From Planctomycetia bacterium (GTDB lineage: Bacteria; Planctomycetota; Planctomycetia; JALXBF01; JBGPMX01), in the NCBI GenBank assembly GCA_036758585.1, contig DAIOWH010000001.1:98462-162461 (forward strand): a stretch of DNA of 64,000 nucleotides, given 5' to 3'. Position 1 is the first letter of the stretch; each line of letters begins with the position of its first letter. The position numbers and the translations under genes were made by a program. Positions 2,273 through 41,662 of this stretch are shown here, in pieces. The notes below the pieces were generated by a model. The model was not told where the DNA came from, did not search any database, and saw nothing but the letters and a program-made list of their open reading frames with translations.

Positions 2273-5200
2273 ATGGCGAAAACGAAGGCGAAGCGACACC
2301 AGAAGTCGCGGCGGCTTGTTCATGGCAACTCGTCGCCAGGCGGATCGCGCCTTGGCTTTCTGGAGCGGCTTGAGTCGCGCGAATTGCTGAGCGATTTCCA
2401 GCCCGTCCAGGTTGGTTTCTCGTGGCTCACCCCCGGTCAGCCCACCGTCGTCCAATTCAATGCGGCAGGTCAGTGTCTGGGGGTAACGGGTCCGGCGGCA
2501 GGCGACCACGATGATTGTGCGATCGGCGACGTCGGCCCTGACCGCGTGACGATTCAATTCAGTCGCAACATCGATCGGCGCACGTTCAACGCCGCCGCAG
2601 ACGTCACGGTGACCGGCGATCTCGACGCGACCGATCCGTTTCGCGTGACCAGTGGCGTGGCGCGACGCCGCGTGGTTACTATCAACACGGCCGGCGACCT
2701 AGCTACAGGCGCCGACGCCAACCTGACGCTCGGCCTTCGCGACATCAAGGCGAAGGGCAAGTCGGGCGCCTGGCTCGATCCGTGGACGATGACGGTGAAC
2801 GTCAACTCGGACCAGCCGCCGGCGCCCGGCAACACGCCGCCGCGCGTCTTGAGTGTGACGCCCGCAGCGGGCGCCCAGTTGAACGAGTCGCCGAGTTTCA
2901 TCGAGGCATTGCTGAGCGAAGACCTCGACTCGCCGGGCCAGAATGGAATTCAACTCTTCGCCGCCGGGCCTGACGGCAATCTGGGCACGACCGACGACGT
3001 ACGAATCAATCCGAGGCGAGTGGACTACAGTGCGGCGACAGATACGCTGCGCTTCGTGGTAAACGGGCAAGTTGCAGACGGACTCTACCAGGCTCGGGTG
3101 ATGGGTTCGCTGCGTGACGGGGCCGGAAGCAGACTGGACGGCAATGGCGACGGGACGGCGGGCGACGACTTCGTTTGGACGTTTCGCGTTGCATCAGATC
3201 CCGGCGGCGGGCCTACTGACACAACCGCGCCGGGCGTCGTGAGCGTAACGCCGAACGCGGGTGCGACGCTCACGCAGTCGCCGAGCGTCATTGAGGCGAC
3301 GCTGAACGAGGATCTCGATCCGGCCCACTTGCCGGACCAGAACAGCCTTCAGCTTCACGCCGCCGGGGCCGACGGCAACCTCGGCACGGCCGACGACGTG
3401 CGGATCGTTCCGACGCGGGTCGAATACAGTGCCGCGACGGACGTCGTGCGGTTTGTGGTGAACGGTCAACTCGCGAACGGCGCCTATCGTGCTCGTCTCG
3501 TCGGCGACTCGATCCGCGACGCCGCCGGCAACCGCGCGGCCGATTACGCCTGGACTTTCGGCGTGAACGTGCCCACCAATCCACCACCCCCGGGCGACAC
3601 GTCGGCGCCGACGGTGGTCTCAACGAATCCGTCCCCGGGCGCGATCATTACGGAGCCCCTGACGGCGATCGACGTGGTCTTCAATGAAGACCTTGATCCT
3701 GCCACCGTGACGCCTGCCAACTTTGTGCTGAGCGCCAGTGGCGGCGATGGTACGTTCGGCGACGGCAACGAGACCACGATTGCGCCGCAGCGCATCGAGT
3801 ACAGCCCGGCGACCGACACCGGGCGGTTTGTGATCGGCTCGCGTTTGCCCAACGACCTGTTCCAGCTCATGCTCGTCGGCACTGCGTCGATTCGCGACTT
3901 GGCCGGCAACAAGCTGGACGGCGACCGCAACGGTTCCGGCGGCGACAACTTCACGGCCACGTTCAGTGTGGCGGTGGCGCCTCCTCCCGACTCATCGCCC
4001 GGCCCGCACAAGGACGTGCTCGGCGGCGATCCACCGGATGCCATCGCCGACGTGTTCCCAGGTGCGCCGACGCCGACGCTGGACATCAGCGCGATTTCAG
4101 GGTTCGCCGATCCGAACAACCTCTACATCAACGTGCGGTTCAATACGACGCCGCCCGGCACGACGATCGAGGCGCCGTCGGCCAGCGAGCCGAACTCGGT
4201 GTTCGGGTTCATTGACATCGACACCGACCAGGACTTGATCACCCCGAGCTTTCTGACGAACTTCGACCGGACCCCTGCGCCGATTTCCAGCACGCCGGGC
4301 GTCGGCATTGAGTTCGTGGTGGACATCGGTTCCGAAGCGAGGCACCCCGGCTCGGTTGACGTGTTGTACACAGACGAGAAGGTGCCGTTGGCAGGGAACG
4401 ACGATTTCGATTCGCGAGACGATCTCTATATCTACAGGCCGCTGACCGGCGAGTTCTTGATCGGGTTGAACAGCGGTGGTCAGCTTGGCACGGTGCTGGG
4501 CCCGTTCCAGTTCGGAGGCGTGGGTGAGACTCCGATTCTGGGCAATTGGGACCCCGACGGCGCCGGACCGTTGCGAGCGAACGGCGGCGACGACCTCGGC
4601 ACTTTCGACGCGACCACCAGCACGTTCAAGCTCGACCTCAACGACGATCGCCGGCTGGGTGAGGATCGCGACGGCGATGGACTGCTCGACCCGACCGAGG
4701 ACCTGAACAACAACGGGCAGCTTGACGTGGGCGAGGATGCCAACGGCAACGGGTTGCTCGACCTCAGCGAAGACCTGAATGACAATGGCGGGTTTACCGA
4801 AGACTTGAACGGCAACGGCCTGCTCGACCCGACCGAGCAGGACCTGAACAACAACGGCAGGGCCGACAATCTGGTCGACACCGAGACGTTTGTGTTTGGC
4901 TTTGCGGCGCCCGATCCCGCCGACCAGGTCTTGTTCGGCGACTGGGACGAAGACGGCGACACGGATATCGGCGTCTATCGCGCGGCGACAGGCGAATTCC
5001 TTCTCGACCTGAACGGCAACTACGAGATTGACGCGGCCGTGACCGATCCGATTCCCGAGCTTCCCTTCCGGTTTGGTCCGATATCGACGACGAACGTAGC
5101 CCTGGTGGGAGATTGGAACGCCGATGGCCGCACGGAAGTCGGTGTGTTCGTGCGGGGCGAGGACCTGAACGGCGATGGATTCTTCAACGACGGAACGGCT

Positions 5201-8200
5201 GCCCCGCTGTTGGACGAAGCCGCGGACGGAGTCGACTACAACGGCGATGGCGACGCGCTCGACCTGTTCAGTGAGGACCTGAACAACAACTCGATCCGTG
5301 AGGACGGCACCGGCTTCTTTTTCCTCGATCGAGACGGCGACCGTGTGCAGGATGCCAGCGAAGACGCGAACAATAACGGTGTGCTGGATCCGGGCGAAGA
5401 CAAGGACGAAGATCCGATCACTGCGGGCACGCAGGGCAACGCATTCCTGGACAACGATGGCCCATTCGCGTTTGGCTTGGCTACAGACAGCCCCGTGTTC
5501 GGGCAGTGGAGCGTTGTCGGTCGCGACGATATTGGCGTGTATCGCCAGGGGCTCGCCGGCGGCCAGTACATTCTGGATTACAACAGCGATCGCGCGGTGA
5601 GCGTGGGGGAGGGTCCGTTCGCGTTTGGCGGCGTGGGCGACCGACCGGTCGTCGGAGTGTTCAGTTTTGACGGCACCTCCCGCATGGGATCGTACACGCC
5701 GACCACGCGGGCTGGCACACGGATCGGCGGCGACCAGTTTTTCATCGACACGAACGGCGATCGCGCGGTGAGTCCTCGCGAAGGACCGTTCACGCTGGCG
5801 CCGACGGCTCCGATCGAGTTTCTGTTCGATAGTTTTACGGTCAAGCTGCCGCTCAGTCAGCTTGGCAACGACCCTGGCGGCATCGTGAACTTCGTTGCAA
5901 CGGTTGGGCCGTTTGCCGGTTTCAGCGACGAGGCGCCTGACCCGCCGCCGCCTCCGACCCCGCCCAACCCGCCTGTGCCCGGCACACCGGCCGCTAGCGG
6001 CGTCGCGGCGCCGCTGCGCGTCGTCGAACTCTCGTTCCCGAACGAGACAGCGTTTCGGTTGACCGAGCCGCTGGCGGACGCACTGCCCAAGAGCACCATC
6101 GCGATTCCCGGCACATCGGTGGTCGTGGGCACCGTGGGGTTGCAGGCCCGACTCGCCGGCGGCGATGCATCGCTGCAGTCGATTCTGGATCGCCGGTCGG
6201 TCGATGCCCGTACCGTCCTGCTCGAAGGTTCGGGCGGCGACGACGTGTTCGGCAACGGCAACGACGTTTCGATCAGCGCCAATCAAATAGTAGTTGGCAC
6301 CAGTCCGTCAGCGGCGTTGATCGGCAAGAGCAACGACACCATATTCTTCGACCTCACCGGCGTGGACCTGGGCGCCGATCTGTATCGGTTCACGCTGGTC
6401 GGCGACGACCCGATCCGCGACTTCCACGGGGTCCCACTCGACGGCGACTTCCTCGACGCCAACGGCGACGGCGCCTTGACCAACGCCGACTTGCCTTCGG
6501 GAAACGGTGTACCCCAGGGCGACTTCATCGCGACGTTCCGGCTGGACGCGCCGCCCGAGGTGATCAGCTTCCGCATGACCCGACCGACGGACCGCAACGT
6601 CGATCCGCTGGGCGCCGCGCCGAGCGACACGGGCGTCATCGGCGACGGAATCACCAACACGCGAACGCCCAACTTTGTGGGCGTGGTCAGCGACGATCGG
6701 CTTCCCATCATCGGCGACAATCCGGGCGACACGTTCGTCGCGGGCGGACAGTTTGACCTGTTCGAGGGCAGTGGCGAGTTCCTGGACGAAGACCTCAACG
6801 GCAACCAACTATTCAATGACGGGTCCACCGCGCCGCTGCTGGACGAGGCAGTGGACGGTGTCGATTACAACAACGACGGCGACACGGTCGACAGTGTGTC
6901 TGAAGATCGCAATGCCAACGGACAGTTCGATCGTACGATCTATCTAGGTCTGCGCTTCACGACGCCTGTGGACCTTGCGTCGTCTGGGGCGACCAACGCC
7001 GTGCGCGGGTTCATTGATATCGACGCCGATCAGGTTTCCGCCACGGGCGGCACAGGCTGGATCCGCGACCTCGACGGAGACCGAACTGAGGATTTCAGCG
7101 ACGGTATCGTGCATCTGGGCCGCGAGGGCGACGTGCCGATCGTGGGCCAATGGCTGCTTGGCGCCGGCGTCAATCCCACGGGCGACCGACTCGGGATCTT
7201 TCGTCCTAGTACGGGCGAGTTCTTCCTGGACCTCGATGGCGACGGTCGCTTCCTGCCCAGCGAAGACGCGAACGGCGACGGTGTATTCGACCCGTCTGAG
7301 GACCTGAATGGCAACGGTCTTTTGGACACTGAGGGCCCGTTCGCGTCGGGTGTGACGAGCGAAGACCTCGATGGCGATGGCGCGCTTGACCCGGGTGAGG
7401 ACGTGGACGGCAACGGAGTACTGGACGTCGCCGTGCCGGTGGTGGGTAACTTCTGCGCCGACAATCCGCAGACGGTCGCTGTGGAATGTCCAGGGACCGA
7501 GGTCGGCGTTTTCCGAAGCGGTCTGTGGACCATCGACCTGAACGGCGATCGGGAATTCGCGGACGGCAGCTTCACCTACGGTGCAGTGGGCGACATTGCG
7601 GTGGTGGGCAACTGGAACGGGCTGCCCGGCGACGAGGTGGGCGTCGTCACGCCTTCAACGGCGACGCTCGCGCCACGCTGGCTCTTGGACCGAGACGGCG
7701 ACACTTCGGCGGCGAACGATACGCCTTTCGAATACGGCACGGCCAATGATCAACAGATTCCGGTGGTGGGCGATTGGAGCGGCAATGGACGCACCAAGGT
7801 CGGCACCTACAGCCCACGGTTCTCGCAGTGGCGCATCGACATCAATGGCAACACCGTGCTCGAAGCCGCCGAAGGCCCGTTCGTGTTCGGCGACCCGCAA
7901 TCGCAGCCGGTCGTTGGCGACTGGAACGGCGACAACGCCGATGACATTGGCACATACAACACGTTCGGCCCGACGAACCAGGGGACCGGGCAGTGGTTCA
8001 TCGACGCCGACCATGTTGCGGGTACGACACCGACATTGACGTCGAACGACGGACCGCACCGGTTTGGACTGGTCGGCGAAGACCGCAACAACGATGGAGT
8101 ACTGCAAACGCTCGAAGACTTGAACGGCAACGACGCTATCGATCCGCCCGACCTGCCGATCGTGGGCAGGTGGGAAACGAATGGTCAGGCGGCGGCATCC

Positions 8201-11200
8201 GACCTGTTTGGCGTCTTTCGGCTGCGCGACGCTTCGCACGTGAACACGTTTGGGTTCACTACGTCGTTCAACATCGCGGGCCGGGCCGATTTGGGGATCG
8301 AGTACTTCGTCGATCTCGCATCCGAGTCCGGCGGAGTGGCGAACCTGGTCGACGCCCGAACGTCGCGGGTGGTGCAAGCCGTTCCAATTCGTCTGTTTCC
8401 AGACAGCCGCACCGTGATCGTCGACATACCGCTCGCGGCGATGCCCGAAGTTTCGGGTGGCCGTGTGACCTTTGGCGCGATCGTCGGGTCGGCCACGGAG
8501 TTCACGGATCAACTGCCCGAGTTGCCGCGTGCGGCCCAGAGCGCCGAGTCGCTTCAACTGGATTTTGCGACCGGCCAGACGCCCGGCTGCCGCACCGGAT
8601 CGGATGGCATCTTCAACGACGGGACAACGTTCACACGCGGGTTCGGCACGTTCACGCTACAGGTGCCGACCAGCGACCAGTTGTCGGAGACGGTGGTTGG
8701 ATGTCTCCCGAGCGTCGTGCGTGTGCGGGCCACCGACTTGTTCGACAAGGTCAATAACATCGTCAGCACGTCGATCGTCGATCGCGGCGTGCGGGTCGAT
8801 CTGACGCCGCCGCGGATCTATCGCGTGATTCCACCCGACAACTCCCAGGGCCGCGACGGGCCGCGCATCCTTCAACTCAATTTCAGTGAAGATCTGAACG
8901 GCAATGGCATCCTGGACCCCGGCGAAGACACCAACGGCGACAATCTGCTGAACAGCGACGATCTCGACCGCAGCACGGCCGAGCGGTCATCGAGTTATGA
9001 ACTGTTCCGCGCCGACGAGCAACCGTTCGAATCCGACTCCAACGAGTTGCGGCAGATCACCTACAACTCGGTGACCGACAGCGTGTCGATCACTCTGGGC
9101 GAGGGTCTGGATTCGGGGCACTATACGTTCGTGGCGTTGAGCCTCGGCGGCATAACCGACGTGGCCGGCAATCGACTCGACGGCGAACCGAACCCCGGCG
9201 CCCGGCCAGGTCAAGCGAACGTCTTCCCCAGCGGCGACGACGTCGCGGGCGGCGACTTCACGACTACTCTGTTGATCAACCAGGGTCCGCCCATCGTCAC
9301 CGCCGCGGCGGGTTCGGCAGGCCCGATCGTTCGTGCTATCTATGATCTGAACAACGAAGACATCAACGGCGACGGCGCGTTCGACGCGGGCGAAGACGTC
9401 GACGGAGACGGCACGTTCGATTTGGGCGACGCGCCCGCGCCGCCGCGCGAAATCGTCGTCACCCTGGATCAGCCGGTGATGCCTTCCAGCGTTCCACTGG
9501 ACCTGAACGGCAACGGGCGATTGGACTGTGGGCCCGACGGCATTTGCGGCACCGGCGACAGTGTGGACCTGAACGGCGACGGCGTCTTCGGACCGGGCGA
9601 CGGCGAAGTCGACGCCGACGGTGATGGAGACATCGACTTCAACGCATTGGACGAAGATACGAAGACCGTGTTCCTGACGCGCACGCGCACGGTCGACCAG
9701 ATTACCGGTCTGGTGTCGAGCATCGGCGACGGCGTTTTCGATCCGTTCTCGAATCGCGTGCTCGGGTTCGTCGAGGTAACGAACGACGGGCACACGCTGA
9801 CCTTCCATCCCAACCCCGAGTTCCTCGATCCGGACAACGACGGCGTGCAAGAGGGCCTGTTGGCGGACCACTACCGCTTCAGCCTGATGGGCGGCGGCAT
9901 ACTGCAGCCCGAACCGTCGGGGTTGCGCGACAACATCATCGTCAGTTGCGATGACTTCCGCAACGATCAGTTGACGCGCCTGGTGCCGGACACGGTCGCT
10001 CCGTCCTTGGCGTGTCGCACCGACAACCGCGACAACGGCCAGGCGCCGACGCCGTTCGACCCGTCGGGCTTCCAGACCACGACCGCCACCGACCTGTTCG
10101 TGACGAACACGCTGAATTCGCAAGGACCCGGTAATGTGTTGCTCACCGCTGTCGAGGACCGTGGCCAGTTGTTCAACGTGTTCGACGACGAGATCGCAGT
10201 CTATGTATCGAAAGATTCGGGCACGAGTTGGGCGAAGACGCCGTTTTTTGCGACCGATGCGGCCCGTACGATAGCCACGCCGGCCAGCCCGACAACGACA
10301 AGCGTCACCTTCGATATTGCCGTCCACCCCAGCGTGGCGTTTGACGCGCTCGGTACGGCGTACGTCGGCTACGCGCTGTACGATCTACCGAACGTCCCCG
10401 ACTTTACGCTGACCGGCGCCGATACTCGCTTCGACGCCGCCGATCGCGACGCCCTCGACACGGGCGGCGCGGTCTGTCAAGACTGCGCCGAAGTGGTAGA
10501 CGTCTTGGCGACCGCCGACGCCGCGACCTACGCGTTTGAGATCGGTTTTTCGCAGACAGTCACTCCGCCGAGCGAGAACGCACTGCGCCCGCTTTTTGGC
10601 CGGTTGGACATCGACTGCGATCGCGACGGCGGCGCCGACTTCTTCGCCGATCTCGCCAGCGAGAACTTCGACCCGGCCGTTGAGTCGCGGTTTGTCAACC
10701 TGCTTGTGGCCGCCGGCGTTAGCCCCGCGTGCAATCCCAGCAACCTAGCGCCCGGTTCGCTCGTGTCGCCTTCGATTCCCATCGATTATCTGGGCGACCG
10801 GGTGCGGTTGCGAGTTGCGCGGGAACTGGTGGACATGGATCCGCCGGTGCTGGCGGACTTCCGAGTTTTGGTCTCGCAGAGTGCGGGCGGTCCGGTGTCG
10901 GACGCCGCGCCCAACGCGGGCTTTACGGCAGTGCGCGACCGGCGTTTTCGTTCCAGCGCGGTCGCGCTTAGTCGATCGGTGGATGTGGTCACGGCCCCTT
11001 CTGGGTCAGCGGTGTTTCAGTCGCCGATTCCGGCGTCCTTCCACTTCCACGAAGACCTTAACGACAACGGCGCGAACGATGCCGGCGACATAGACGTCGA
11101 CGGCGACGGTCAAATCACACAAATGACGTTCGTGGATCTTGACCCGTCCATTGCCGTGGACAAGACCCGCATATACTCGGACCGTGCGCGGACGCCTAAC

Positions 11201-14200
11201 TCGAACTTTGGGTTCGTGTACGTGGCTTTCGTAATCTCCGGCGTCGGGGACGAGGGATCGCTGAGCGATCGCGACATCTACGTGGCCCGCAGTATCGACG
11301 CGCTGGTGTACAACGACCCGACTCTGGGCTTCAGGCCTTACTGGGAGGCTTCGACGTTCGAGCGCCCGCCCGTCGCGTTGCCCAATCCTGGCCCGATTAC
11401 GTTCGATAGTCTGGACCCGACAGACCTTGGTTTTCGGCCGAACTTTCTCGGGAACCAAGCCAATGATGATCTTGCCGCAATTCCGAGCGAGGTCGCTTCG
11501 CCTCGCCTTGCCGTCGGAGCACTGGGGCAAGTCTACGTTATCTGGCAGGACTACTCGCAACAGACCGTGTCTATTGAACTCGATCGGACCTTTGACACGT
11601 TCCACGCGAACCTGATTTCGACGTTTTGCGATCGAGACCGGCTCGACACACCGTTCAACTTGCCGACGGGCCAAGACCCGCCATTGAACCCGGCAGACAC
11701 GTGCCCAGCTCAAGACGCTCCCGGTCGGCTCCCACCGCCCCTGGATCCCACGGTGCCGATTACGTGGCGCGGCTCGAACTGGAGCGGCGCAGACATCACG
11801 GTGGCGCTAAGCACCGTGAACGGCTTCGACGATCCTGCGAGCAACGGCGAAAATGACACGTTCGATGAGAAGGCCCGCCAACCGGTGTGCGATGCGCCGC
11901 AGTTCCCCGACATCGAGATCATCACCACGAACTTGTTTGGGTCGTGTTACTCCATTGCGGCCCAGCCACGCGGCATCACGACGAACGCCCGCATCGCCCT
12001 GGACAGCTCGGCTGGCCCGTTTGCGGGGCGAGTCTATGTGGCATACACCTCGCGTCACGACCCGAACGACCCCGTAGGACATGACGACACGGATGTCTTC
12101 CTGACTTTCAGCGACGATTTCGGCAGGAACTGGAGCACATACCCCGCGGCGTTTGGCACGCCGCCGATTCCGGGCAGTTTGCTTCAGGAGCCGGGAACTC
12201 AGGTGAACGACGTCGATCGTGGCAGCCAGTTTAGTCCGGCGCTCAGCGTCGATCCCGTTACCGGCGACGTGTACATGGCTTGGTACGACACGCGCAACGA
12301 CGAGACCGACTTTGTGCGTGGGATATTTGGCAACGAGCAAGCCGAGGTGTTTTTTGCCGTCGGACGGCCCGAGACGGCTGGCATCACCTTCCTGCAGAAC
12401 CAGGTGCTCACTACGCGGCCGAGCGATCAATCGCTGCGCAATCCGAACCGCAGCCAGTTCGCTTACGGCGACTACATCGACATCGTCGGGGTCGACGGCG
12501 TCGCCCACCCAGCCTGGACCGACACGCGGCTGATCTTGGTAGACCATACCGCGGTGCCGCAGCGCGAGGAGCAGATTGCGGAAGTGATGACGGCACGGAT
12601 CGACGTGAACCCCGCGTTCGAGCCGGCCGACCAGACGCCGGCTGTCACTGACGTGCTCGGCAACGCACTGGACGGCGAGCCGATCAACGAATCGGACACT
12701 GTGGTCGGGTTGCCGTCGGGCGACGGCCAGGCGGGCGGCAACTTTGTCGCCGGCTTTTCAATATCGGACCGCATCTTGTTTGCCGACAGCGCGTTCGAAG
12801 AGGATCCACTGCGCCCGTCCACCGGCACGGCGGACAACCCATTCCCGACGCTGCGTCGCGCGATTGATCAGGCAAACTCGATTCGTTTTTCCATCACCTT
12901 TGATCGCGCCATTGCGCTTCCGTCCGCGGGCGCCGGCAATCGCGTTCAGGGGTTCATCGACCTGGACGTCGACCGGCGAGTGACGACGCCGGTCGTAGAC
13001 CTCGATGGCGACGGCGACGCGGGCGAACCTGAGGACACGTTCGGCTTGTCGCGAGTCAACCTGCTGGGCCTTGGCCCGACGGGTTTGGGGACCGAGTTTT
13101 ACATCGACCTGGCCAGCGAGTTCGACCATCCAGGCGCCGTGGACCTCTTGAACTCGGTGACCCGCGCACTGGTGGCGCGGATTCCGGTTTTTATTGAATC
13201 AACGGCGCCGGACACGCTCGTCGTTGAGGTGCCGCGCGGCGCCATCCGAGTCGGCGAGTTCATTCCAGACCGCGTGAACTTTGCGATCGCCGTCGGCGTT
13301 GACGCCGACGGAGACGGAGTGCTGGAGCCTGCGGAGTTGCATGACGAAGCGCCGAACCGGTTCGTCGAGACCGATCGCGACCATTTCCGAGTCCCGCCGC
13401 CCGGCACGCCGGCCGTCGGCGCGCCGCTGTCCGAAGAAGGCGACACGCTGCTTGTCGGCGCCACGCTCGACATTCGACGAGTGATCGTCGACAGCGTGCC
13501 GACCAGGCCGGTGGTGGTGCATGTGCGCGACGGCCGCACCCCCGGCGGCCAGCCGGTGCCCTATGTGGTCCAGCCGCGATCGGGCGGACTCAATGGGACC
13601 ATCACCGTCGGCCACTTCACCGACGTCGAGTTCGAGCCGGGCGTTGTGGTCAAGTTGCGAGCGGCGAATTTGGATGTCGCGGGCGATGGGTCCAATGTGT
13701 TCAGCCGCGGCGATGTGAACGATCCGGTGATCTTCACCTCGCTGTTCAACGACGATCAGAACGTGGGTGGCGACACCAACGGCGACCTGGACAACACCCA
13801 GCAGCGGCGCGGCGACTGGGGCGGCATTGTATTTCACGCCAACACCGACGACGCGCTGTCGCTGGTCAACTTCACGCGTCTGGAGTTCGGCGGCGGCGTC
13901 GTGCCGCGCGCCGCTGAAGGCGGTCTCGACACCGACGTGCGGCCCGAGGCGATCACGCTGAAGGCCGCCCGACCGGCCGTGGTCAACACGGTGATTGCCC
14001 AGAGCGGGGCCGCGCCAGTCACGCTCGAGCAGAACGCCCAGGCCGGCATGTCCGCCACACCCGACAGTTTCGCCGACGACACCGCACTGCCTGCCGACGG
14101 CACCGGCGCCGGTCAGCGCGGCCCGCTCTTGCGCGACCTGCTGTTCCGCGACAACTCCATCAACGGCCTTTTGGTACACGCCGACCACGACACCGGCGAG

Positions 14201-17200
14201 GCCGCCTTCACCAGCTTCGTCGATGCACGTTGGGACGACACCAGCGTCGTACACGTCTTGACGTCGCTGATGCGAGTAACACAGGGCACTGAGCTGGTGA
14301 TCGATCCGGGCATCGCCGTCAAGAACCGGTTGGGGGCCATCCAGATAGACGGTCGCGGAACCTTGCGTGTGGGCGGTCCCAACGAGGCCGACAGCAAGGT
14401 CGTCTTTACATCGGTGTTCGATGACACGGTGATCGAAGACACCACCAGCGACGGCGCTGCCACCGTGTCCAGGGCGGGCGACTGGGGTTCGATCTTTACG
14501 GTTGAGCCGCCGCGGCGATTCAACTTGGCCGTCGCCGAACCCGGACTCGAGCAGCGCGTGATCGGTGGAGTCGGGCCTACGGTGATCATCGACGGCGCCG
14601 AGATCAAGTTTGGCGGCGGCCTCTACGTGGACAACCAGGTTCCGTCGCTCGGTTTCGGCGTAACCACGAATGTGGTGAACAACGCGCTGCGGCCGACCAT
14701 GACGCAATGCGTCGCCGCCGTCGCCAACTGCCGACCGCGCAGCGCCGTTCAGTTAGAGACGCCCGGTTACTATCAGATCACCAACACCGCGTTTCGCAAC
14801 AACGGACTCGCCAACAACGGCGCCCTCCTGACCGATCCGCCGCTCACTGTGTACGCCAACGTGCTGCGACCCGATATCCCGTTCGACATACCTACAACGT
14901 TCGTCGACGAGGCGGCGCTCAACGAAGATCCGCTGTTCCGCGACAACGACTTCGAAAACAACGAGCTCGACGGCATGGAGGTCCTGCCGATCTTCCTCGA
15001 TGAAAATGGCGACCGCGCCAATGACGAGTCTTGGGCGGCGAACCAGCCGAGCGAAGCCTACCTGCTGAACACTCAGTTTGTGGATCTAGATGCGGACGGT
15101 CGCCTGGAGCTGACCGACGGTATCGACGGGTTGTGGAATGACACGGATGTTGTTCACGTCGTGCGCAACACGATTGGGCTGCCCGGCCGCGTCGAAGTCC
15201 CCGGAGCGGCGGCCGGCCGATTTGGCATCACGCCGTTTCTCGACCCGGTGCAGTTCCGCGACCTGATTCTGAAGGTAGGCAAGGTGGATCAGGCAGACTT
15301 GCTGGAGCTTGACTTTGAGTCCGACGCACTCGGTGCGCCTTTGTCGCCGGGCCAGGTAATCCGACCCGAGGCCTACAACCTCTCTCCGTTCCGGGTTTCT
15401 ATCGTGCCCAACTTGGGGCTTTCGACACAACTGCGTATCGAGGGAACGCAGACGAACTTCTCGGACTTGTTCGCTCTGAATGATACTACTGCGGGTTGTG
15501 TCCCTGATCCGGAACTGCCCGGGTTCGTCCCGACCAGTGGCAACAATGTCCTCACCACAGATACGGACGGTTTTCCCCCAGCGGCCGATGGCGTCACGAT
15601 CCGGTTCAACCAGCCTGTCTATGCCGTAGGACTCAATATCATCGGCAACCGGTTCGTCGGTCTCGGTGAGAATATCGAGGTGGTCGCGCTTGACCCGAAC
15701 GGTGTCGAGGGCACGTTTACCACCGCGTTCCCACTAACCGGCGACGCTGGGAGCGCGTTCCGCGGATTCATCAGTGCATTTCCGATTGTCGAGTTGCGGC
15801 TGAACGAACACCTAGGCGATGAGGACGACCTCATCACGGCCCCCGTTGGCTGTCCACCCGATGATGAGATCTACGATGACGTAGCCTACGACGACCTCGT
15901 CTTCAGCACCGCGCCCGTCTTTCCGTTCCAGCCGACGGCGACACAACCGTCCGCCGCATTGACACTGACGAGCCTGGTATCGGGTCACGAGTTGCGCACG
16001 CCTTTGAACGAGGCTTTCCAAACGCTTAGCGACGCCGAGGGTTTGGTGGTGAAACTCTCTGGTGCAGCGCCGGCGGCGACCGTAACCGGCGCGCTAGCGT
16101 TCGGGGATCTCCCCAGCCAGAACCGTGCGTTCGTCGGTGCGGGATTTCAGATTGGTATGGACGAAGGCCATGACGCCTTCTTCGACACCGATTCGGCGAT
16201 CCAGAGCAATCCGACGACCGATTGGGGCCTTGGGTCGGCCTTCCGGATCCTGGGCGTGCCGGCGAACGAGGCCACGGGCCAACCGCGAGTGCCAGTCGTC
16301 TTGACGTCGTTGCGCGACGATTCCGAAGGACCCAAGGGCCAACCGCACAACACCGACGCCGTCAATGACTTGACCGACCAGCAAGGCTCCCTGATCGGCG
16401 TGCCGGGCGCGCCGGTCACTGGCGATTGGGGCGATATCTTCATCGGCGCCCGTTCGGCGGGAGACCGCGACGACCTCATGGTCCGCGATCTGCTCGGCCG
16501 CCTGGTCGCCGACGCTCAGGCCGTACCCGGACGAGCAGTGACTCCGAACGATGTGAGCACCGAGTTCCGTGAGGACTTGTTGCCCGCCACGATGGATGAG
16601 ACGCAAGGATCGGTCATCCTCGACGCGCGCATCAAATACGGCGCTAAGATTCGGTTGCAGGGCGCGTCGCAGATATCCAACCAGGCGAACTCGGCGGCGT
16701 TTGGCCAGGAGGCGCGCAATGGACGCGCCATCTTGCCCAACGGTCGGTTTCCAGCCACTTGTCCGGATTCCCCGCTCGATTTCTCGCCAGGTTTGTGTCC
16801 GGGCGCCTTCCTTGCCGAAGACGGGTCGATGGTCATTGCACACAACGAGCTGCTCAACTTACGCGACGCCGGCGTCATCGCTCACCCCGGTTACTTTTTG
16901 GCGGCCGACGCACAGCACGACAACTGGGTGTGGGTCCCGTCTGAGCCGTGGGTTTTTAACAACGTCATCGCATTCATAGATGAACTGAATGGCGTGGCCC
17001 CGACCGGCACGCAGGGGGCGCACGGAGTGCGCATTCAAGGCGCCGCTCCACCAGACTGCGACCGGTTCACTCAGGATGCCGGAATAGTAGCCGATGGCGT
17101 ATCCGGCGTGGTCATGCACAACACCATCTTCGGCACGCAGCAAGGTATAGAACTGTCGCCCAACGCGGCCGCGCTGGCGATCAACAACATCATCTCCGAC

Positions 17201-20077: not shown

Positions 20078-20130
20078 ACGCGACAGAGTCTTGCCTCGGG
20101 GTGTTCCTGGGGCCGTGGAGATGGCAAACG

Positions 20131-23100
20131 ATGACTAACGCGACGGGCAAACGATTCGGAGCAGCACGGCGCCTCGGCCGCACCCGGCCGACGCTTCGCG
20201 CCCGGCACGCCGGACAGGTCGAGCGCCTCGAGTCGCGCGAACTGCTCAGCTCGTTTGCGCCGGTCGACGCCAAGTTTCTCTGGGGTGCGGCTGGCCCGAC
20301 TAGCTTGGCCCAGGTCTGGGTGAACGCCTCCGGCGATTGTGTGGGCGTCTCCGGTCCGCAGATGTTTCTGCATGAGGATTGCCTGCTCGGCGAAGGGGCC
20401 GGCCCGAACCGCGTCGTCGTTCAGTTCAACGCGAACATCGACAAACGCAGCTTCAACGCCGCGTCGGACGTCGTCGTCGGCGGCGACCTGGACCCATCGA
20501 ATCCGTTCCGCGTGTTCGGCGGCACGGCCCGACGCGGCCTCTTGACCCTGTTCACCACCGGCGGTTTCTCCGCGGACGACGGCTCGGAGATGACGCTGAC
20601 GATTCAAGGGATTTCGTCCAAGGGTCGCAAGCGGACGCCTGCGGTTGTGATGGACCCGTGGACAGTCACGTTGCAAGTAACGCCCGATCCCCCGCCGCCT
20701 CCGCCCCCGGTCGAGGTCTGTGGGGACAATGTCGACAACGACGGCGACGGCCAGGCCGACGAGGGCTGTGCGCCGCCGCCCCCGCCACCGGTCGAGGTCT
20801 GTGGGGACAACATCGACAACGATGGCGACAGCCGGACCGACGAAGACTGCGTCGTCACGCCGCCCGATCCGCGACCTTCGGTCTCGCCCGGCGACATCAC
20901 GCCGCCTCTCGTTGTGGGAGTGTCGCCGACGGTCGATGCCGTGATCGGCACGTTGCCCACCACGATTTCGGTCGCCTTTAGCGAACCAGTCGACCCGACC
21001 ACGTTGTCGACCAGCTCCATTCGCCTGTTCACCAGCGGCGGCGACGGCCGATTCGGCGATCGAGCCGACCGGCCGATCGCAACGAGCGGCGTCACCTACA
21101 ATGCCGCCGGTCGCACCGCGGTGCTGCAACTGGCCGAGACGCTCGGCGATGAGGTTTATCAGATTCAAGTAGGCGGAGCGCACAGCATCAAGGACCTGGC
21201 GGGCAACACGCTCGACGGCGACCGCAACGCTCTGGTCGGCGGCCTGTTCACCAGCGAGTTCCAGATCGACCGCTCGACGCCGAGTTTTGACCTCTCGCTG
21301 GCGCCGGTCGCGAACACCGGCATCTCCACCGACGAGACTACGTCGCGCCAAGACCATATCGGAGTCACCGGCCAGGTGAGCGACGGCAGCCTGAGTCGAC
21401 TTGGCGGCTATCAGGTGGCGATGGACGTCGATGGAGACGGCTTCGACGACGGCGGCGCCATCACCGACGCGAATGGGTATTTCACAGTTACGTCGCTCGC
21501 ACAGATTGCGACGTCCGGCCGGCATGATATCGACGTACGAGTAACCGACCGCGCCGGCAACTCGTCCGTGCGGACCACGACCATCAACGTAGATGCCGAC
21601 GCGCCGCTGCTAATGCCGATCAACCTTGCCGAGCGTCCAGACCCGAACGATTACCGAATAACGCCCGCAGGCCACGTGGTTCGGTTGTTTGACGAGTCTC
21701 CGACCGAACTGCGCATTGCCGTGAGCGAGAACCTGGCGCCCGGTCCGGCGCGCGACTTGGACAACTACCGCCTGGAACGTACCGGACAACTTGGTCTGTT
21801 CTCCAGTCCGACCGCGTTGGATTTGTCGTCTCAGATTAGTGAGGCCCGTTTCGATGAGACGACGCGTCAAATCGTGGTCACGCTGGCGTCCGCGCTCGCC
21901 GACGGCGAGTATCAGTTGGTCGTTCGCAGTCATGGCACGATCACCGACGTAGCCGGCAACCACCCAGTGTCGGACGGCATTCTGGGTTTCTATGTGGGCG
22001 CGTACCCTGCTGTGCGCGCCTTCACTCCGGCGGTGACGCCGATGACGCCCGACAACGTGCGGCAGATGCCCACCGTGCGCAGCAGCTCGATTGAATACTA
22101 CGGCCGCGACGGTGGGTCGCGGTCCGAGCAGTCCACCAGTTTCGGGTCTCGGTCTGCCGGTTTGGCCCGACTCACCGTGAACGAGTCGGAGACGTTCGGC
22201 AACAGTACCAACAATCCATTCGATCCTCAGATGCCTGGAACCGCCGAGCCGATCGCCGGGACGACGTTCCCGTTCGGCAACTTCGGCGTCGATCAGGGTG
22301 AAGATCCCGAGGCGTTCATTTTTGGCGACATCGACTCCGGACTTGACGTCGACGTGTATTCGTTTCGCGCCAAGGCGGGCGAGTCGGTGCGGTTCACGCT
22401 CACCGACCAGTTCGGCTTTTTCCCGTTCGGCGGCGAAATCGCGATCATCGACCTCGGTACCGACAACGCCGTCGGCGGTGCGGGCGACGCCGCCGACCGC
22501 ACGCTCATCAGCAACGTACACAAGTTCATCGATCCAGACTTCGCTTTTTTTCAACTCCTCGACCTGTCACAAATCGAGATTACGATCACCGGCCTGACCG
22601 GCCGCGCCCTGGACAATCCCGAAAACGAGCTGTTGAACCCGCTTACATCCGAACGCCGCGACCCGAGCGACCGCACGTACCTGTTGCGCGTCGACCCGTT
22701 CATCGGCAGCTATGTGATCTCTGCCGAGATGTGGGAGTCCTTCAGCCGCGATACGAACCAGAGCCAAATCGTCTATGTTGATTTCGACGGGCAGGAAGAC
22801 GTGTCCTTTCCGAACTATTTTACGGGCGGAACCTTGTCGGTCGACATGCCGCCGTTCGACATTCGCGATTTCGGCATCGACCCGATCTTTCAGAATCAGT
22901 TCATCGACACCGTGATGGCGGCGGTGCGAGAGGACTTCGAGCAGATCCGTGCGGAAGGAATCAATCCAGCCTACAATTTCCAACTGCGCGACAGTCTGTG
23001 GCATCCCGATCCAGGGAACGCCAACAACGTGCTTCGCGTGGTGGTAGGCGGCGCGGGCGACCTGATAGGTTTCCAGCCGTCGTTTGGGCTGGCGGGCATT

Positions 23101-26100
23101 GCCGACGCGTTAGATACCGGCAACCGGCAAGGCAACAACGTCGTGCTGGTGTTTCCGAGCGGACTCATCGACGTTGCACAGATTTTTGGGGTCGCCCCAC
23201 TCGGATTCACGCCCGCACAACTGGACGAAATCGCCCTCGAGACCGCCGCGACAGTCAGTCACGAGGCCGGCCACGTGCTCGGTCAACGGCATACGAATCA
23301 GGGTTTGTTCCAGGTCGACCTCGTAAACAACGTCTTCGGCTGCGATCCTCTGACGCTCGACAACATCGCCGACGCCTCGCCGCTCGGTTTCGGCGACGAC
23401 TTGCTGCACCGCTTCGACCGCTATCTGAACATGGACGACTTGTTCTGCCAGGGTCGAATCGAAGACTACGACGGTGTCGCCGACTCGGGCGGCGTGATCG
23501 CGTGGGGCATGGAAGGGCGCGACACGACGCCTCCGCGAGTACTCGACATCGATGTGTTGCCGGGACAGATCAAGATCGCGTTCGATGAAGGCGTGGATGC
23601 CGCCACGCTGATCAATCCGAACAATGTGCGACTGTTCCGCGATGACGGAAACAACGACTTCCAGAACGGCGGTACGCCCGTTCAACTCCGCCCCGTCACC
23701 GAGCGACAGTTGACCACCAGCCAGGCCGACCCTTGCGACGGACCCACGCAACTGGGCGTCAGCCTGTACGATGCGTGCACCACCACGCTGACCCTCGACG
23801 TATCCGATCCGGTCAACGAGATTCACAAGGACAAGAAGTATCGGTTGGTGCTCAGTGGCATCACCGACAATCCACTGAACCCCCTGAATCCAACCAACCC
23901 CCGGCCTAATGCGCTCGACTGCGAATTGAACCGCAAACCGTTCACCGGCGCGTATGTGTTTCCGACGGGCAACGGCACGCCTGGCTGCGGCGACGACGCC
24001 GTCTTTCCGGGCGACTCGACGAACGTGTTTCAGTTCGACTTCTTGGCAACCGAGACGGTGTTCGTCGATGGCGACTACAGCGCCGACAACGGCGCCAGTA
24101 CGGGACTCTTCGCCGCGCCGCACACTCTCCTGCCGCAGGCGTTGCAAGTAGCCGAGTACGCGGGATTCCTTCAGCCGCTGGTGGGTGAGCCGGAGCCGGT
24201 GACTGTGCGAGTGGCGCCGTCGATAGCTCCCTACCGCGCTGTAGACCCTCAACTCGATTCCAGTTTCAACGACCAGCCTGACCAAGGCAGCCTTTTTGTG
24301 CCGCCGCGCGTGAACCTGGTCTTCGACGGTCGCACCGACATCGTGCAGTCGATCTTTGTGGTCGCACCCGATCCGGCCGCCCCGGCGGACAATCCGGGCA
24401 CGATCTACCGCGTCGACGCCAACTCGCCTGCGGGCGGCAATGCCGTCGTGCTCGACCGGTTCTTTACGCCGCGGCCGATTCCAGGTGGCGCCGGGCTCGC
24501 GTTTGACGGGTCGAGTCTCTTCTTGACTCAAGACGCGCCCGGCGACGACGCCGTTTGCGACGAGATATTCACGCTTGATCCGTTCACGGGCGCGACCCGC
24601 AGCATCGTCACGCCGCGCACAGCATCGGCCACAGGCGCCGCGACGTGCCCAGCCGATGCGACCAACATCGACGGCCTGGCCGCCGCCGAGACCCTGCTGT
24701 TTGGCGTGGATGCGACCGACGAAAGGGTGGTGCTGCTCGATCGCTCGAACGGCACGCTTGTCGGAAGTTTCGTCGCGTCGTTCGACCTGGCCGGCGGCAT
24801 TGATTTCGACGCCACGACCAACACGCTGTGGGCGGCCGGCGTCGTCACGGACGTTGCGGACCCGTTGGTCGGCAGACGGGTGATCCGGCAAATGAACCCA
24901 GTCACCGGGGAGGTCCGAAACACCGTTCCACTTCCTGCCGGCTCGCCGTCCGCCGAGGGACTGGGACTGTCTGGCGACCGCATCTTCTTCAGCGACGTTG
25001 CCGGCCGCAACATTTTGGAACTCAACGAGGCTGACCCGTCCGCGTCGAGATCGTTTGCGTTTGCGCTCGGCGCCCCGGTGGCGCTGGCTGGTCCGCCCCG
25101 TGAATTGGTGGTGACCAAACTGCTGGGCACACGCATCGAGGCGTTCGGCGAAGATGCTTCGCTCAGCGCCATCGGCAAGAGCGTGGACGAGCCAGTGGTG
25201 TTTACCTCGCTGCGCGATACTGCGTTTATGGGCACGGGAGTCAGTTCCGCACTGGCCGGCGACTGGATGGGTTTAGTGTATCGTCCCGACTCGGCCGATG
25301 TGCTGACCGATCGCCTGACGCCTGAGTACGCGTCGGTGCTTGAAAACGTGCTGGTCCGATTCGGCGGCGGTCCGGGAACGATCATTCCGCCGGTTGATCC
25401 GGCGAGTCAGGATCCTGTACGCAAGTTCGGCGTGGTGCAGTCGCTCAGTCCGCTGAACCTCTTCGACGCGCGGATCAAGGTTGAGAACGTGGAGTTCTCG
25501 AATAATGCCGAAGCGGCAATCGCTGTTACACCGAACGCGCTCGAGCGGATTCAGGGCAAGTCCGGCTTCGAACTGTTCTGGGACGTCGAACCGGGCGCGC
25601 CGATCGTCGGCAACTGGTGCGTCGATGATCCAAGCACGCCGGCGGAGATCGAGTGCGAGGGCGTCGAATTTGGGTTGTATGAAGCCACGCGCCGACGCGT
25701 ACTGGTCGATGCCAACGGCAACCGCGAGTTGGACGAGGCCGAACAGTCCACGGCCGCGCTGGGCGAGACCGATAGCGTGCCGGTGGTGGGTAACTTCACG
25801 CCCGACATAGAAGGCCGCGATGAACTGGCGGTGTTCAATCGTGCCACGGGCGTATGGATTGTCGACGTCGACCGTTCGTTCAGCGAAACGGGCGCGGATT
25901 TGCTCATTGAGTTCGGCAAGCACGGCGATATTCCGATCGTCGGCGACTGGGGAGGCACGGGCACTGACAAGCTCGGTCTGTACCGACCGCGGCCGCGCAC
26001 GACCGACACAGAATGCCAGATGGCGGCGCTGTTACCGGCCGCTTGTTTCGTGCTCGACCTGAACAACAACTTCCGGTTCGACGCTGGCGAGGACTTCAAT

Positions 26101-40093: not shown

Positions 40094-41662
40094 TTACTGG
40101 CCGAATCCGCCACCCGCAGCACCGGTGACTTGGAAACGACGCTCGCCGGCCAGTGAGTTGAACTGCGGAAACACGTTGAGGCGAACGTAACGTCGATCCG
40201 CGGAGATCACCGCCTGAGCGGTAAATCCGGCGCCGAAGAAGAAGGGCGTAATGGTCGGATTGAAAGCTACCGCCCCGCCGCCGACCGCCCCGCCGAATTG
40301 GAAGAGGTGCTGCGGCCCGCCGTAGGGGCCGGCTCGCCCGCCCGGATCGCCGGCCGACGTCCGATCGGACAGCCCCATCAGTTCTTGGATCGGCAGTCGG
40401 CCCGACGATGCGACGCCCACGCCTGGCGGAACGTATTGCGGAATCGCCAGCAGTCCGGTGCGTCGGCCGGTTTCGAGTTTCACTAACAGCGGCTTGGTCG
40501 CGCCGAGCGGAACGTAGAACGTGTCGTGCTTCTCGTCCGGCGAACCCTCGTGATACGTCACTTCAACCTTGACGCGGCCGCCGAGCGGACTGCCCCAAAC
40601 GCGGTCCACACGAATCTCGTAGTCACCGGGCAGCGCGCGGGCACAAACGTAAAGCTCAGCCGTGTTCTTGGCCGACCCCGCGTCCTTGCCGAAGCTGTCG
40701 CGGACCAGCACGCCGCCGGCGCCCGTAACTCGATTCTGTGCACAGCAGACCGTGCCGGGCGGCTCGACTACTCGCAGGTCGATGTCGGCGTCGCCCTGCC
40801 AGCCAATGCGCACGACCAGGTCGCGCGTGTCGGCCCGCCGAACCTGTTCGACCAGCGCATCAGCTTCGGATGTGCGGCCGGCGCGGCGCAGCTTGTTCTC
40901 GACGTCGGCGGCTTGGCTGCGGGCCTTCTTGTGCAGTTCGTCCTGCACGTTCACCCAACCGTGCGCGAGCAGGTGCGAAGCAGCCCACGCCACAGTGCGG
41001 CCATCGACAAGCTCGGCGGCCAGGTCCAGACTCTCCAGGTAGGGTTCCGGCGCGAGCGGCACTTTCTCGGAGGCCTCGCGATAGAGTCGAATCGCGGCCT
41101 CCTTTAGACCATGTCGCGCGAGTCGTCGAGCGACACGGTACTGGGCGTCGGGTGAGTCGGAGACGACATCGGCCGCGGAGAGCAGAGTTCGTTGGATCTC
41201 CTGCTTGTCGGCGCCGGTAGCCTCTTGAAGTAGCGCGAGCGACTCGTACATCCACGGCTCGTTGAAGCCGTGCCGAATGGCAGCCTTGAGCAGCGCGACG
41301 CCGTGATCGGGTTTCTTGGACTTGACCAGAACCTCAAGGGCGGCGCGAACGCCGGCCGAAGATTCCTTGTGTTGCGCAAAGTGCCGATCCCAGACAACCT
41401 CGGGGTCGAGGTCCGCCTTGGACGAACGGGCTGGGTTGGTCGGTGCGGCGTCCCTCGCCTGTTTCTGCCGGGCCTTCGGCTCATCGTCCTGGGAGCCGAG
41501 CCCGGCCGCTAAAAAGGGCTTACGTTTCTCAGGCCGTTCGCGCGACGCGATTGGTCCAGCACGCCGCCGATTTGCTCGTGGATTTCTGATGTCTGTCTGA
41601 TGACCAGGGCCGGGTTCCGACGCCAGTAACGGATCGAGCCTTCGCCACCGCGCACGTCCCAC
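40094..41662 (-). CDS. Hypothetical protein (helical repeat N-half, beta-rich C-half ending in a Gly-rich tail). 5' end uncertain
   Basis: 522-aa ORF. Its first ~51 codons overlap the 3' end of the upstream VWA gene (stop at 41509) in another frame, so the true start is probably an internal or alternative codon near 41500. No family recognised. Confidence 0.45.
   Translation of the reverse strand: MGRARWRRLDPLLASEPGPGHQTDIRNPRANRRRAGPIASRERPEKRKPFLAAGLGSQDDEPKARQKQARDAAPTNPARSSKADLDPEVVWDRHFAQHKESSAGVRAALEVLVKSKKPDHGVALLKAAIRHGFNEPWMYESLALLQEATGADKQEIQRTLLSAADVVSDSPDAQYRVARRLARHGLKEAAIRLYREASEKVPLAPEPYLESLDLAAELVDGRTVAWAASHLLAHGWVNVQDELHKKARSQAADVENKLRRAGRTSEADALVEQVRRADTRDLVVRIGWQGDADIDLRVVEPPGTVCCAQNRVTGAGGVLVRDSFGKDAGSAKNTAELYVCARALPGDYEIRVDRVWGSPLGGRVKVEVTYHEGSPDEKHDTFYVPLGATKPLLVKLETGRRTGLLAIPQYVPPGVGVASSGRLPIQELMGLSDRTSAGDPGGRAGPYGGPQHLFQFGGAVGGGAVAFNPTITPFFFGAGFTAQAVISADRRYVRLNVFPQFNSLAGERRFQVTGAAGGGFGQ

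Follow-up and report, generated by a model that had tools for sequence, protein, structure and literature searches.

A study by Studholme from 2004 is reportedly the one named for giant planctomycete surface proteins with the motif RRLxxExLExRxLLA. This motif is a presumed planctomycete export signal and has been linked to giant surface proteins; in Tuwongella immobilis, eight of the ten longest proteins carry it and several of them turned up in the envelope fraction, and giant multidomain proteins with this N-terminal export motif are typical of Planctomycetes (PMC8567305). The Myxococcus gliding adhesin CglD contains a dodeca-repeating DxDxDG motif for which the study describing it found a match in the Ca-binding type-3 repeats of COMP (10.1101/2023.10.19.562135). 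Here we compare these and other described systems with giant gene 1 (gene 1 below) of a Planctomycetia bacterium, located in a stretch of 64,000 nucleotides (nt) that was analysed as a whole and is referred to as the window (assembly GCA_036758585.1, contig DAIOWH010000001.1, positions 98,462 to 162,461 of the forward strand). A preliminary description, made from the sequence alone, had presented the gene as a mosaic of immunoglobulin-like (Ig-like) modules, acidic Ca-type loops and a sialidase-like propeller.

With moderate confidence, we read the product of gene 1 as an exported, fibre-like surface protein of ~600 kDa that would be stiffened by Ca2+ and whose beta-propeller would be a binding head and not a sialidase. 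The mosaic character is upheld, since Ig-like modules, acidic Ca-type loop arrays and an Asp-box beta-propeller are all present, and the single 5934-aa polypeptide given earlier is borne out by an uninterrupted open reading frame (ORF) of 5934 codons. Two relatives share the architecture: P0005 (6449 aa), recovered by a HMMER search with aa 2590-3440 as query, is collinear with gene 1 over its full length at 45-57% identity and has the same N-terminus, MAKTKAKRHQ, while P0006, a fragment of 3091 aa, is collinear at 54% identity over 3248 columns. Because both are collinear at 45-57% identity, this ORF is a genuine conserved coding sequence. The scan of genome contigs returned no relative, and a scan of metagenome contigs with aa 1-600 returned generic Big_5 proteins only and no orthologue. 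The gene and its N-terminal motif lie as follows.

2273 to 20077, + strand: giant gene 1, 5934 aa (ORF list and translation; relatives P0005 and P0006).
2345 to 2392, + strand: N-terminal basic stretch and SRLGFLERLESRELLS, a planctomycete-type export motif with the core ExLExRxLL[AS], seen in the sequence.

The export motif of gene 1 reads ERLESRELLS at aa 31-40 and comes after KTKAKRHQKSRR; its position, the preceding basic stretch and the core all agree with the planctomycete motif and, as in the known giant surface proteins, no hydrophobic h-region accompanies it. Four consecutive genes on the + strand, beginning at 2273, 20101, 32155 and 36697, have a basic stretch at their start and then ERLE[SDV]R[EC]LL[SAT], and because all four carry ERLExRxLL, genes 2273-40011 look like a surface-protein cluster. 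The second giant ORF (20101-31005, 3634 aa; gene 2) starts 24 nt after the end of gene 1, has a paralogous N-terminal domain in common with it (aa ~40-140) and contains Big_5, Big_13, Beta_helix/NosD and DUF1565 domains according to Pfam, which also identifies gene 32155 as a subtilase (Peptidase_S8, 1493 aa) and gene 36697 as an FG-GAP protein (1104 aa). The export motif also heads 26 of 153 relatives of the propeller, and Pfam Planc_extracel (PF07595) aligns with it in P0011 and P0012, in both cases below the cut-off (P0012, VERLESRKLLS, 18.7 bits against 25.5). Gene 1 further resembles the giant planctomycete surface proteins in its size class (4,000-10,000 aa), in its Ig-like and integrin-type repeats and in its clustering with other motif genes. 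The preliminary description had called the combination of modules unusual; the same architecture is kept in P0005 and P0006 and, as said above, giant multidomain proteins with an export motif are typical of Planctomycetes, so that word is not supported. What is not described in PMC8567305 is the module set of gene 1, namely an insertion-expanded Asp-box propeller, a four-fold 'IDID...DLASE' beta-sandwich and 38 EF-hand-like loops.

These loops are the most pervasive feature of the protein. Hexamers of the form D-x-[DN]-x-[DN]-G (DxNxNG) occur 38 times across the whole gene 1 protein against 1.8 in shuffled sequences, and 12-residue units resembling an EF-hand loop occur 17 times against 0.14, an enrichment of 20- to 100-fold. 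At the DNA level, a repeat search finds 23 copies of a 39-nt unit between 2596 and 19731. The preliminary description had placed a single array at about 4658-4870; it is present, with six loops, and the claim understated the matter, as loops span the whole protein. This array is the densest loop patch and the one place where ordinary blastn finds intragenic DNA repeats (36-nt period, 70-88% self-similarity, E 1e-10). The array and a loop doublet within the propeller are located at:

4664 to 4870, + strand: densest array, six 12-residue D-x-N-x-N-G-x-L-D-x-x-E loops with a 36-nt period (repeat family D1; DNA self-matches of 70-88%; Pfam EF-hand_1 E 1.4e-4; NCBIfam CglD E 1e-4).
11054 to 11110, + strand: Ca-loop doublet EDLNDNGANDAGDIDVDGDG inside the propeller, between strands q330-336 and q363-373 of the structural model; conserved in P0001.

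An EF-hand has a 12-residue loop with ligands at positions 1, 3, 5, 7, 9 and 12; dockerin type I has two segments of 22 residues in which a helix comes after a Ca loop; and thrombospondin type-3 repeats have paired cysteines between DxDxDG loops. The unit of gene 1, D-L-N-G-N-G-L-L-D-P-x-E, shares EF-hand ligand positions 1, 3, 5, 9 and 12, has Gly at position 6 and a hydrophobic residue at position 8. Since the next loop begins at position 13, the loops have no flanking helices, which sets them apart from dockerin type I (PF00404), as adjoining loops leave no room for helices; likewise, the AlphaFold2 (AF2) model places no helices around the doublet inside the propeller, so that the helix-loop-helix of an EF-hand is not formed there. 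Pfam searches of short pieces agree with this picture: EF-hand_1 (PF00036) aligns via loop positions 10-21 (E 1.4e-4, 21.6 bits, under the cut-off of 25.4) and EF-hand_5 (PF13202) via positions 9-20 (E 3e-4, 20.5 bits, under 25.9), that is, 20-22 bits against cut-offs of ~25, Dockerin_1 is at noise level (E 8.8, 7.1 bits) and TSP_3 (PF02412) gives no match at E<=10. The likeness to thrombospondin type-3 or dockerin repeats proposed earlier is therefore not sustained, the best match being the EF-hand loop, itself below the cut-off. With thrombospondin/COMP type-3 repeats and CglD, gene 1 has in common back-to-back acidic D-x-[DN]-x-[DN]-G loops with a 12-residue period in what, judged from its sequence, would be an extracellular adhesion-type protein. 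It differs in that the array (aa 790-870) contains no Cys, TSP_3 does not match and the NCBIfam CglD region scores far below its cut-off (E 1e-4, 20 bits against 400), and its loops, scattered as doublets inside other domains, do not make up one globular wire domain. Taken together, the loops of gene 1 are putative Ca-binding loops on good grounds, and membership of the TSP-3 or dockerin family is unsupported. P0005 also has 38 loops in total, with about six in the equivalent array and extra arrays at other insertion points, a distribution that would fit a picture in which surface loops acquire and shed such units as cassettes. In addition, an intragenic DNA repeat of 109 nt (5155-5263 versus 6784-6892; 75% identity, E 9e-19) encodes EDLNGDGFFNDGTAAPLLDEAADGVDYNGDGDALD and EDLNGNQLFNDGSTAPLLDEAVDGVDYNNDGDTVD, a Ca-loop cassette that stands at equivalent sites ahead of the two ~47-aa repeat regions described below.

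The propeller was characterised by sequence profiles and by structure prediction. Both Asp-boxes are exactly where the preliminary description had put them, and they are the only two canonical ones in the gene 1 protein (aa 2646 and 3280), against a median of three per propeller relative; by regular expression alone this count is marginal (P = 0.036 in shuffles). When pieces of 2000 aa and 700 aa were searched with Pfam, none of BNR, sialidase, TSP_3, FG-GAP and dockerin was matched (700-aa pieces at E<=1), and on the C-terminal 261 aa of the propeller BNR (PF02012) reaches 12 bits against a cut-off of 27, gene 1 itself staying below every BNR and BNR_2 cut-off. We searched aa 2590-3440 with HMMER exhaustively against 1.84 billion representatives and obtained 690 matches at E<=1e-3, 143 of them at E<=1e-10, nearly all falling on the final ~200 residues. 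Among relatives at phmmer E values of 1e-22 to 1e-14, five of ten sampled pass the Pfam BNR_2 cut-off and most have BNR Asp-box matches. A family profile was built from 63 relatives, with the clade of P0001, P0002, P0005 and P0006 left out and a few proteins from the profile search included by length. This profile matches gene 1 at 225 bits (E 1.4e-70) in collinear order, with profile positions 36-101, 189-227 and 237-442 on aa 2615-2701, 3072-3108 and 3213-3473, respectively, so that a family propeller of ~410 residues is spread over ~830 residues in gene 1. The same profile has no match in any other ORF of the window.

The structural model was computed with AF2 from a 42-sequence alignment (A5), after a 5-sequence model was discarded at a predicted local distance difference test score (pLDDT) of 44. 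It has a predicted template modelling score (pTM) of 0.72 and a mean pLDDT of 68.6, with 450 residues at or above 70 and long low-confidence loops making up the rest. In the model each Asp-box comes after the third strand of a blade, and a beta-sandwich is inserted in the second blade. The region is an Asp-box beta-propeller on the evidence of BNR_2 relatives, family profile and model, and not of the Asp-box count alone; its blades are probably seven rather than six.

10070 to 12589, + strand: Asp-box (BNR_2-related) beta-propeller, probably of seven blades, about twice the normal size through insertions (profile and structure evidence).
10208 to 10231, + strand: Asp-box 1, SKDSGTSW, in the blade 1 turn between strands q50-57 and q65-68 of the model; aligns with the family Asp-box.
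12110 to 12133, + strand: Asp-box 2, SDDFGRNW; Pfam BNR 12 bits, E 0.24, below cut-off; lies within a 201-bit family match.
10508 to 10933, + strand: beta-sandwich copy 3, inserted in the second propeller blade; AF2 strands q152-279 (aa 2741-2868, eight strands, pLDDT ~80-90) between strands q93-115 and q305-313; kept in P0001, P0005 and P0006; 210 bits to the sandwich hidden Markov model (HMM).

The family to which this propeller belongs has ~700 detectable members and is uncharacterised, with no curated functional model: NCBIfam gives only far-sub-threshold matches for gene 1 (CglD, F510_1955) and no curated family for nine relatives. Judged from the sequences recovered, the ~830-aa insertion-expanded form, with its embedded beta-sandwich and Ca-loop doublet, appears to be conserved in only a handful of metagenomic giants. 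P0005 contains a second, partial propeller-like segment upstream of its main propeller (aa ~2674-2865, 33% identical to aa 3226-3447 of gene 1). That the propeller might interrupt a Big_5 domain was also considered but not supported, as the concatenated flanks gave no Big_5 match.

Insertion of one domain in another is not limited to the propeller. The sandwich found in its second blade is one of four copies in gene 1 of a ~150-aa beta-sandwich with the signature GFIDIDxD ... G-x-E-[FY]-x-VDLASE ... DEAP. Copies 3 and 4 are compact and 32% identical to each other, and an HMM built from them was used to locate the others.

4079 to 4396, + strand: N-terminal part of beta-sandwich ('GFIDIDxD...VDxxSE') copy 1; the HMM of copies 3 and 4 matches aa 630-698, E 3.7e-8; as a chimera with 5807-5941 it is collinear with the compact copies at 29-34% identity.
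4499 to 5806, + strand: first ~47-aa repeat region, interleaved with Ca-loop arrays, probably a propeller nested in copy 1 (repeat alignment A6; FG-GAP-like by motif only).
5807 to 5941, + strand: putative C-terminal part of copy 1, from the collinear chimera alignment; the HMM did not detect it independently.
6938 to 7048, + strand: N-terminal part of copy 2; HMM positions 12-54 on aa 1560-1606, E 2.3e-6.
7091 to 8281, + strand: second ~47-aa FG-GAP-like repeat region, with Ca-loop doublets, inside copy 2; ~385 aa between HMM positions 54 and 59.
8282 to 8521, + strand: C-terminal part of copy 2; HMM positions 59-108 on aa 1991-2037, E 2.7e-4.
12881 to 13363, + strand: copy 4, compact, with one Ca loop; 283 bits to the HMM of copies 3 and 4, of which it is a member.

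Because HMM positions 12-54 and 59-108 match apart, copy 2 is split by ~385 residues, and alignment suggests that copy 1 is interrupted by ~470 residues, at another loop. The sequence in between is made up of about six ~47-aa repeats, interleaved with Ca-loop arrays, with the consensus DGPFxFGxxGDxPVVGxWxxDGxDDxGxYxPxTxxxQFxLDxNGD. These resemble FG-GAP/VCBS (integrin-alpha-type) blades by motif; Pfam FG-GAP and FG-GAP_3 gave no match at E<=1 on 700-aa pieces and reached E 0.046 and 0.26 on a short piece, which falls short of assignment, a profile of eight repeats found only a weak WD40 blade in the PDB and a phmmer search of the PDB with aa 710-1209 found no matches. Since the Pfam and PDB searches do not confirm it, we give the FG-GAP assignment as an inference. 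Gene 1 thus appears to have been built by domain-in-domain nesting, with copies 1 and 2 split by the ~47-aa repeats and copy 3 nested in the propeller.

The Ig-like modules at the N-terminal side of the protein were identified by Pfam as Big_5 (PF13205; aa 1-600, E 3.3e-33, 115 bits, above the gathering cut-off of 23.6, four stretches). Gene 1 is in this respect like the Big_5 (SbsA-type) Ig-like domains of S-layer and surface proteins, with three tandem units and a fourth stretch reported; one later Big_5-like module is different in holding inserted Ca loops and scoring below the cut-off, and otherwise nothing is notable.

2831 to 3220, + strand: Big_5 Ig-like unit 1 (within the Pfam Big_5 match for aa 1-600); 63% aa identity, and 70.5% DNA identity over 268 nt, to unit 2.
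3221 to 3598, + strand: Big_5 Ig-like unit 2, the best Pfam Big_5 stretch (aa 316-429); 76% identical to the first Big_5 unit of P0005.
3599 to 3991, + strand: Big_5 Ig-like unit 3; 42% aa identity to unit 1, 51% to the second P0005 unit; DNA 59.9% identical over 319 nt to unit 2.
8801 to 9184, + strand: weak Big_5-like Ig module with a Ca-loop doublet (loops at 8891 and 8927); Pfam Big_5 E 0.006, 17.7 bits, below cut-off.

Three such modules had been described earlier as ~80%-identical tandem DNA units and as a hot spot for recombinational expansion and contraction. The units are there, close to where they had been placed, but their DNA identity is 52-70.5%: local blastn alignments (word 7, +1/-1) give 70.5% over 268 nt between units 1 and 2 (E 4e-39) and 59.9% over 319 nt between units 2 and 3 (E 1e-11), and the three units compared whole are 65%, 52% and 56% identical. 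The DNA similarity is therefore statistically real. RecA-type recombination is efficient with roughly 20-30 nt of perfect identity (minimal processing segments). The longest exact run common to any two units is 9-10 nt, Tandem Repeats Finder (2000-31200) reports no array at the units, a blastn self-comparison at word 11 finds no match between them and blastp of the gene 1 protein against itself returns the identity high-scoring pair only. Third codon positions are 47%, 37% and 45% identical, against 34% expected from base composition, and the same codon is used at only ~45-57% of the residues identical between units. These observations speak against a hot spot: since exact runs are of 9-10 nt and third positions are near chance, the units are old tandem duplicates, kept similar by constraint at the protein level, with the DNA similarity as a by-product.

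Comparison with P0005, the only protein with which copy number could be compared, as the metagenome-contig scan gave no orthologue, leads to the same view. P0005 has two Big_5 units at the site where gene 1 has three, the first being 76% identical to unit 2 of gene 1 and 60% to unit 1, and the second 51% identical to unit 3. The duplication must be old because unit 2 has 76% identity with the P0005 unit and only 63% with unit 1, and the number of units has changed over evolution, given two in P0005 and three in gene 1. The copy-number difference looked for among relatives thus exists, but the change would belong to a timescale of ~50% protein divergence. Where gene 1 has the extra Ig unit, P0005 (aa ~180-205) contains a low-complexity run of five GGNDP that is absent from gene 1.

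The C-terminal end of the protein has features of its own, and a beta-helix precedes it, outside the 2850-12560 region covered by the preliminary description.

19004 to 19513, + strand: right-handed beta-helix (Pfam Beta_helix E 2.6e-9, NosD E 3.5e-6).
19982 to 20017, + strand: C-terminal motif EWSDAIDVLLER, then a basic tail; common to gene 2, P0005 and P0006 only.

The counterpart of EWSDAIDVLLER in gene 2, EWTTLIDSWLDD, lies in its last ~25 codons (about 30930-31002), and the basic tail after the motif is found in gene 1, P0005 and P0006. The regular expression W...[LIVM]D.[LIVMW]L has no other match in 132,821 aa of propeller relatives. The motif may be an anchoring, sorting or partner-binding signal.

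From these elements we propose the following. The N-terminal motif with the ExLExRxLL core would mark the protein for export as a giant surface protein. The chain would be a string of beta-rich modules (Big_5 Ig spacers, the ~150-aa beta-sandwich, two regions of ~47-aa repeats, the Asp-box propeller and beta-helices), several of them nested in loops of others. The 38 loop motifs, mostly back-to-back 12-residue units, would sit in loops and linkers and bind Ca2+ outside the cell, lending the fibre stiffness and stability in the manner of thrombospondin/COMP type-3 repeats, CglD and RTX-type adhesins. Ig-like and beta-sandwich modules would act as spacers, and propellers and beta-helices as binding, possibly enzymatic, heads, the Asp-box propeller being a ligand-binding head, probably for carbohydrate, and not a sialidase. 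The Ig units, as old duplicates, would change in number only over evolutionary time. The analysis establishes the ORF with its conservation, which domains are present, the enrichment of the loop motif, the fold of the propeller and the nesting of one beta-sandwich copy; from these we infer that the protein binds Ca2+, is exported to the surface and serves in adhesion or binding. Several observations weigh against the proposal: every EF-hand match is below its Pfam cut-off; the four N-terminal peptides of the window give no Planc_extracel match at E<=10; the ~47-aa repeats would be FG-GAP/VCBS blades by motif resemblance only; pLDDT is under 50 for about one residue in four of the propeller model; the best structural matches of the propeller are enzymes (GH33, GH145, PL24 and rhamnose-glucuronate lyase); and gene 1 has pectate-lyase/NosD-type beta-helix modules, with a subtilase and a GH2 enzyme encoded by its neighbours.

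The last of these points bear on an alternative in which the propeller, alone or with the beta-helices, is an active carbohydrate-cleaving enzyme, either a sialidase-clan hydrolase or a GH145-, PL24-, PL25- or PL42-like hydrolase or lyase, and gene 1 encodes a machine that is tethered to the surface and degrades polysaccharides, the Ig and Ca modules forming its stalk. We regard this as unlikely but keep it as a rival account. The GH33 propeller is six-bladed, with the catalytic set in its centre (an Arg triad, a Tyr/Glu nucleophile pair and an Asp acid/base); the FRIP motif supplies the first arginine of the triad, and the sialidases NanA and those of leech and Ruminococcus have a propeller with an inserted beta domain. 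Gene 1 is like the Asp-box propellers of BNR_2 (PF13088), including GH33 NanA (2ya4), in its Asp-box hairpins between strands 3 and 4, and like NanA in its fold and, in the model, in the beta domain inserted in blade 2. All cited Foldseek matches, moreover, are glycan-active propeller enzymes (NanA, E 9e-7; BT3686, 5mul; LOR107 PL24, 6byp; rhamnose-glucuronate lyase, 7esk), the A3 profile ranks GH33 sialidases first in a search of PDB sequences, and the Beta_helix/NosD modules and the nearby GH2 and subtilase genes would suit such a machine. However, the Foldseek matches have 7-15% sequence identity and target-normalised TM-scores <=0.47, the best E value of the A3 profile is only 0.015 (range 0.015-0.2), and a phmmer search of the PDB with the propeller region gave no matches. 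The propeller of gene 1 also departs from BNR_2/GH33 in having two canonical Asp-boxes, no FRIP, probably seven blades instead of six and ~830 aa against ~400: no [FYWLIV]R[IVL]P occurs in aa 2590-3440, and [FY]R[IV]P occurs anywhere in just one of 153 relatives. Neither the GH33 exo-alpha-sialidase family model nor BNR_2 is reached above threshold in the window sequence, and neither that sequence nor any of nine relatives attains the threshold of a Pfam or NCBIfam enzyme family. Near-invariant residues lie in motifs recurring from blade to blade (VD..TG, W.D.R, S.D.G.TW), which suggests a structural role and not one active site. With no family model, no FRIP, weak E values against the PDB and no NCBIfam family, the glycan-cleaving module of the preliminary description is unproven.

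The same modules could also form a structural part of the planctomycete envelope, holdfast or stalk matrix, that is, a Ca-crosslinked scaffold and not a ligand-specific adhesin. The export motif and the Ca-loop evidence serve this account as well as our own, four putative exported proteins are clustered, including a second giant paralogue with common N- and C-terminal motifs, and the C-terminal motif with its basic tail could serve anchoring or self-assembly. We nevertheless hold it to be rather improbable, as one expects propellers and beta-helices in heads that bind or catalyse more than in proteins of a matrix. A bolder reading, in which the insertion-expanded propeller represents a new family of carbohydrate-active enzymes and is the catalytic head on a Ca-stiffened stalk, while the C-terminal motif with its basic tail is a signal, so far undescribed, that sorts or anchors the surface proteins of planctomycetes, is a long shot. 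Very unlikely, and largely refuted, is the combination first put forward, a present-day hot spot giving phase-variable length in an adhesin with a true sialidase. Tandem Ig units with significant DNA similarity, the two units of P0005 against three, two canonical Asp-boxes and sialidases at the head of the Foldseek list are in its favour, but the DNA is 52-70% and not 80% identical, exact runs stay below the length that RecA uses efficiently, third positions are near chance, Tandem Repeats Finder and blastn at word 11 are blank, the duplication is old by the P0005 comparison, and neither sialidase family membership nor FRIP is seen. More generally, tandem modules at ~65% DNA identity should not be taken for recombination hot spots, nor two Asp-boxes and a propeller for a sialidase.

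Elsewhere in the window, the only sizeable true tandem DNA repeat in 2000-31200 lies in gene 2 at 20692-20843, where Tandem Repeats Finder reports an 81-nt unit present 1.9 times at 88% identity that encodes a Cys-containing segment of the type PPPPPPV-EVCGDNIDNDGDSQTDEGCA. Downstream on the - strand are a VWA+TPR+STN protein (41509-44259), the GH2 glycosidase (47442-49748), which is identical on the European Nucleotide Archive (ENA) metagenome contig ERZ27245623:k141_51735, and a ThuA/DUF7133/cytochrome-c protein (49791-54500). This neighbour content is typical of planctomycete genomes.

Returning to the reading that we favour, of a Ca2+-stiffened surface fibre with a binding head, gene 1 belongs to the known class of giant planctomycete surface proteins and does not overturn current understanding. 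What is noteworthy is the degree of domain nesting, the uncharacterised family of Asp-box propellers and the C-terminal motif common to both giants of the window. Planctomycetes have many giant surface proteins, which are almost wholly uncharacterised, and gene 1 provides a clean, conserved example of how they are built, with modules nested in one another and EF-hand-like loops sprinkled throughout, while its Asp-box propeller family, often accompanied by the planctomycete export motif, is flagged as a candidate ligand-binding or enzymatic head.

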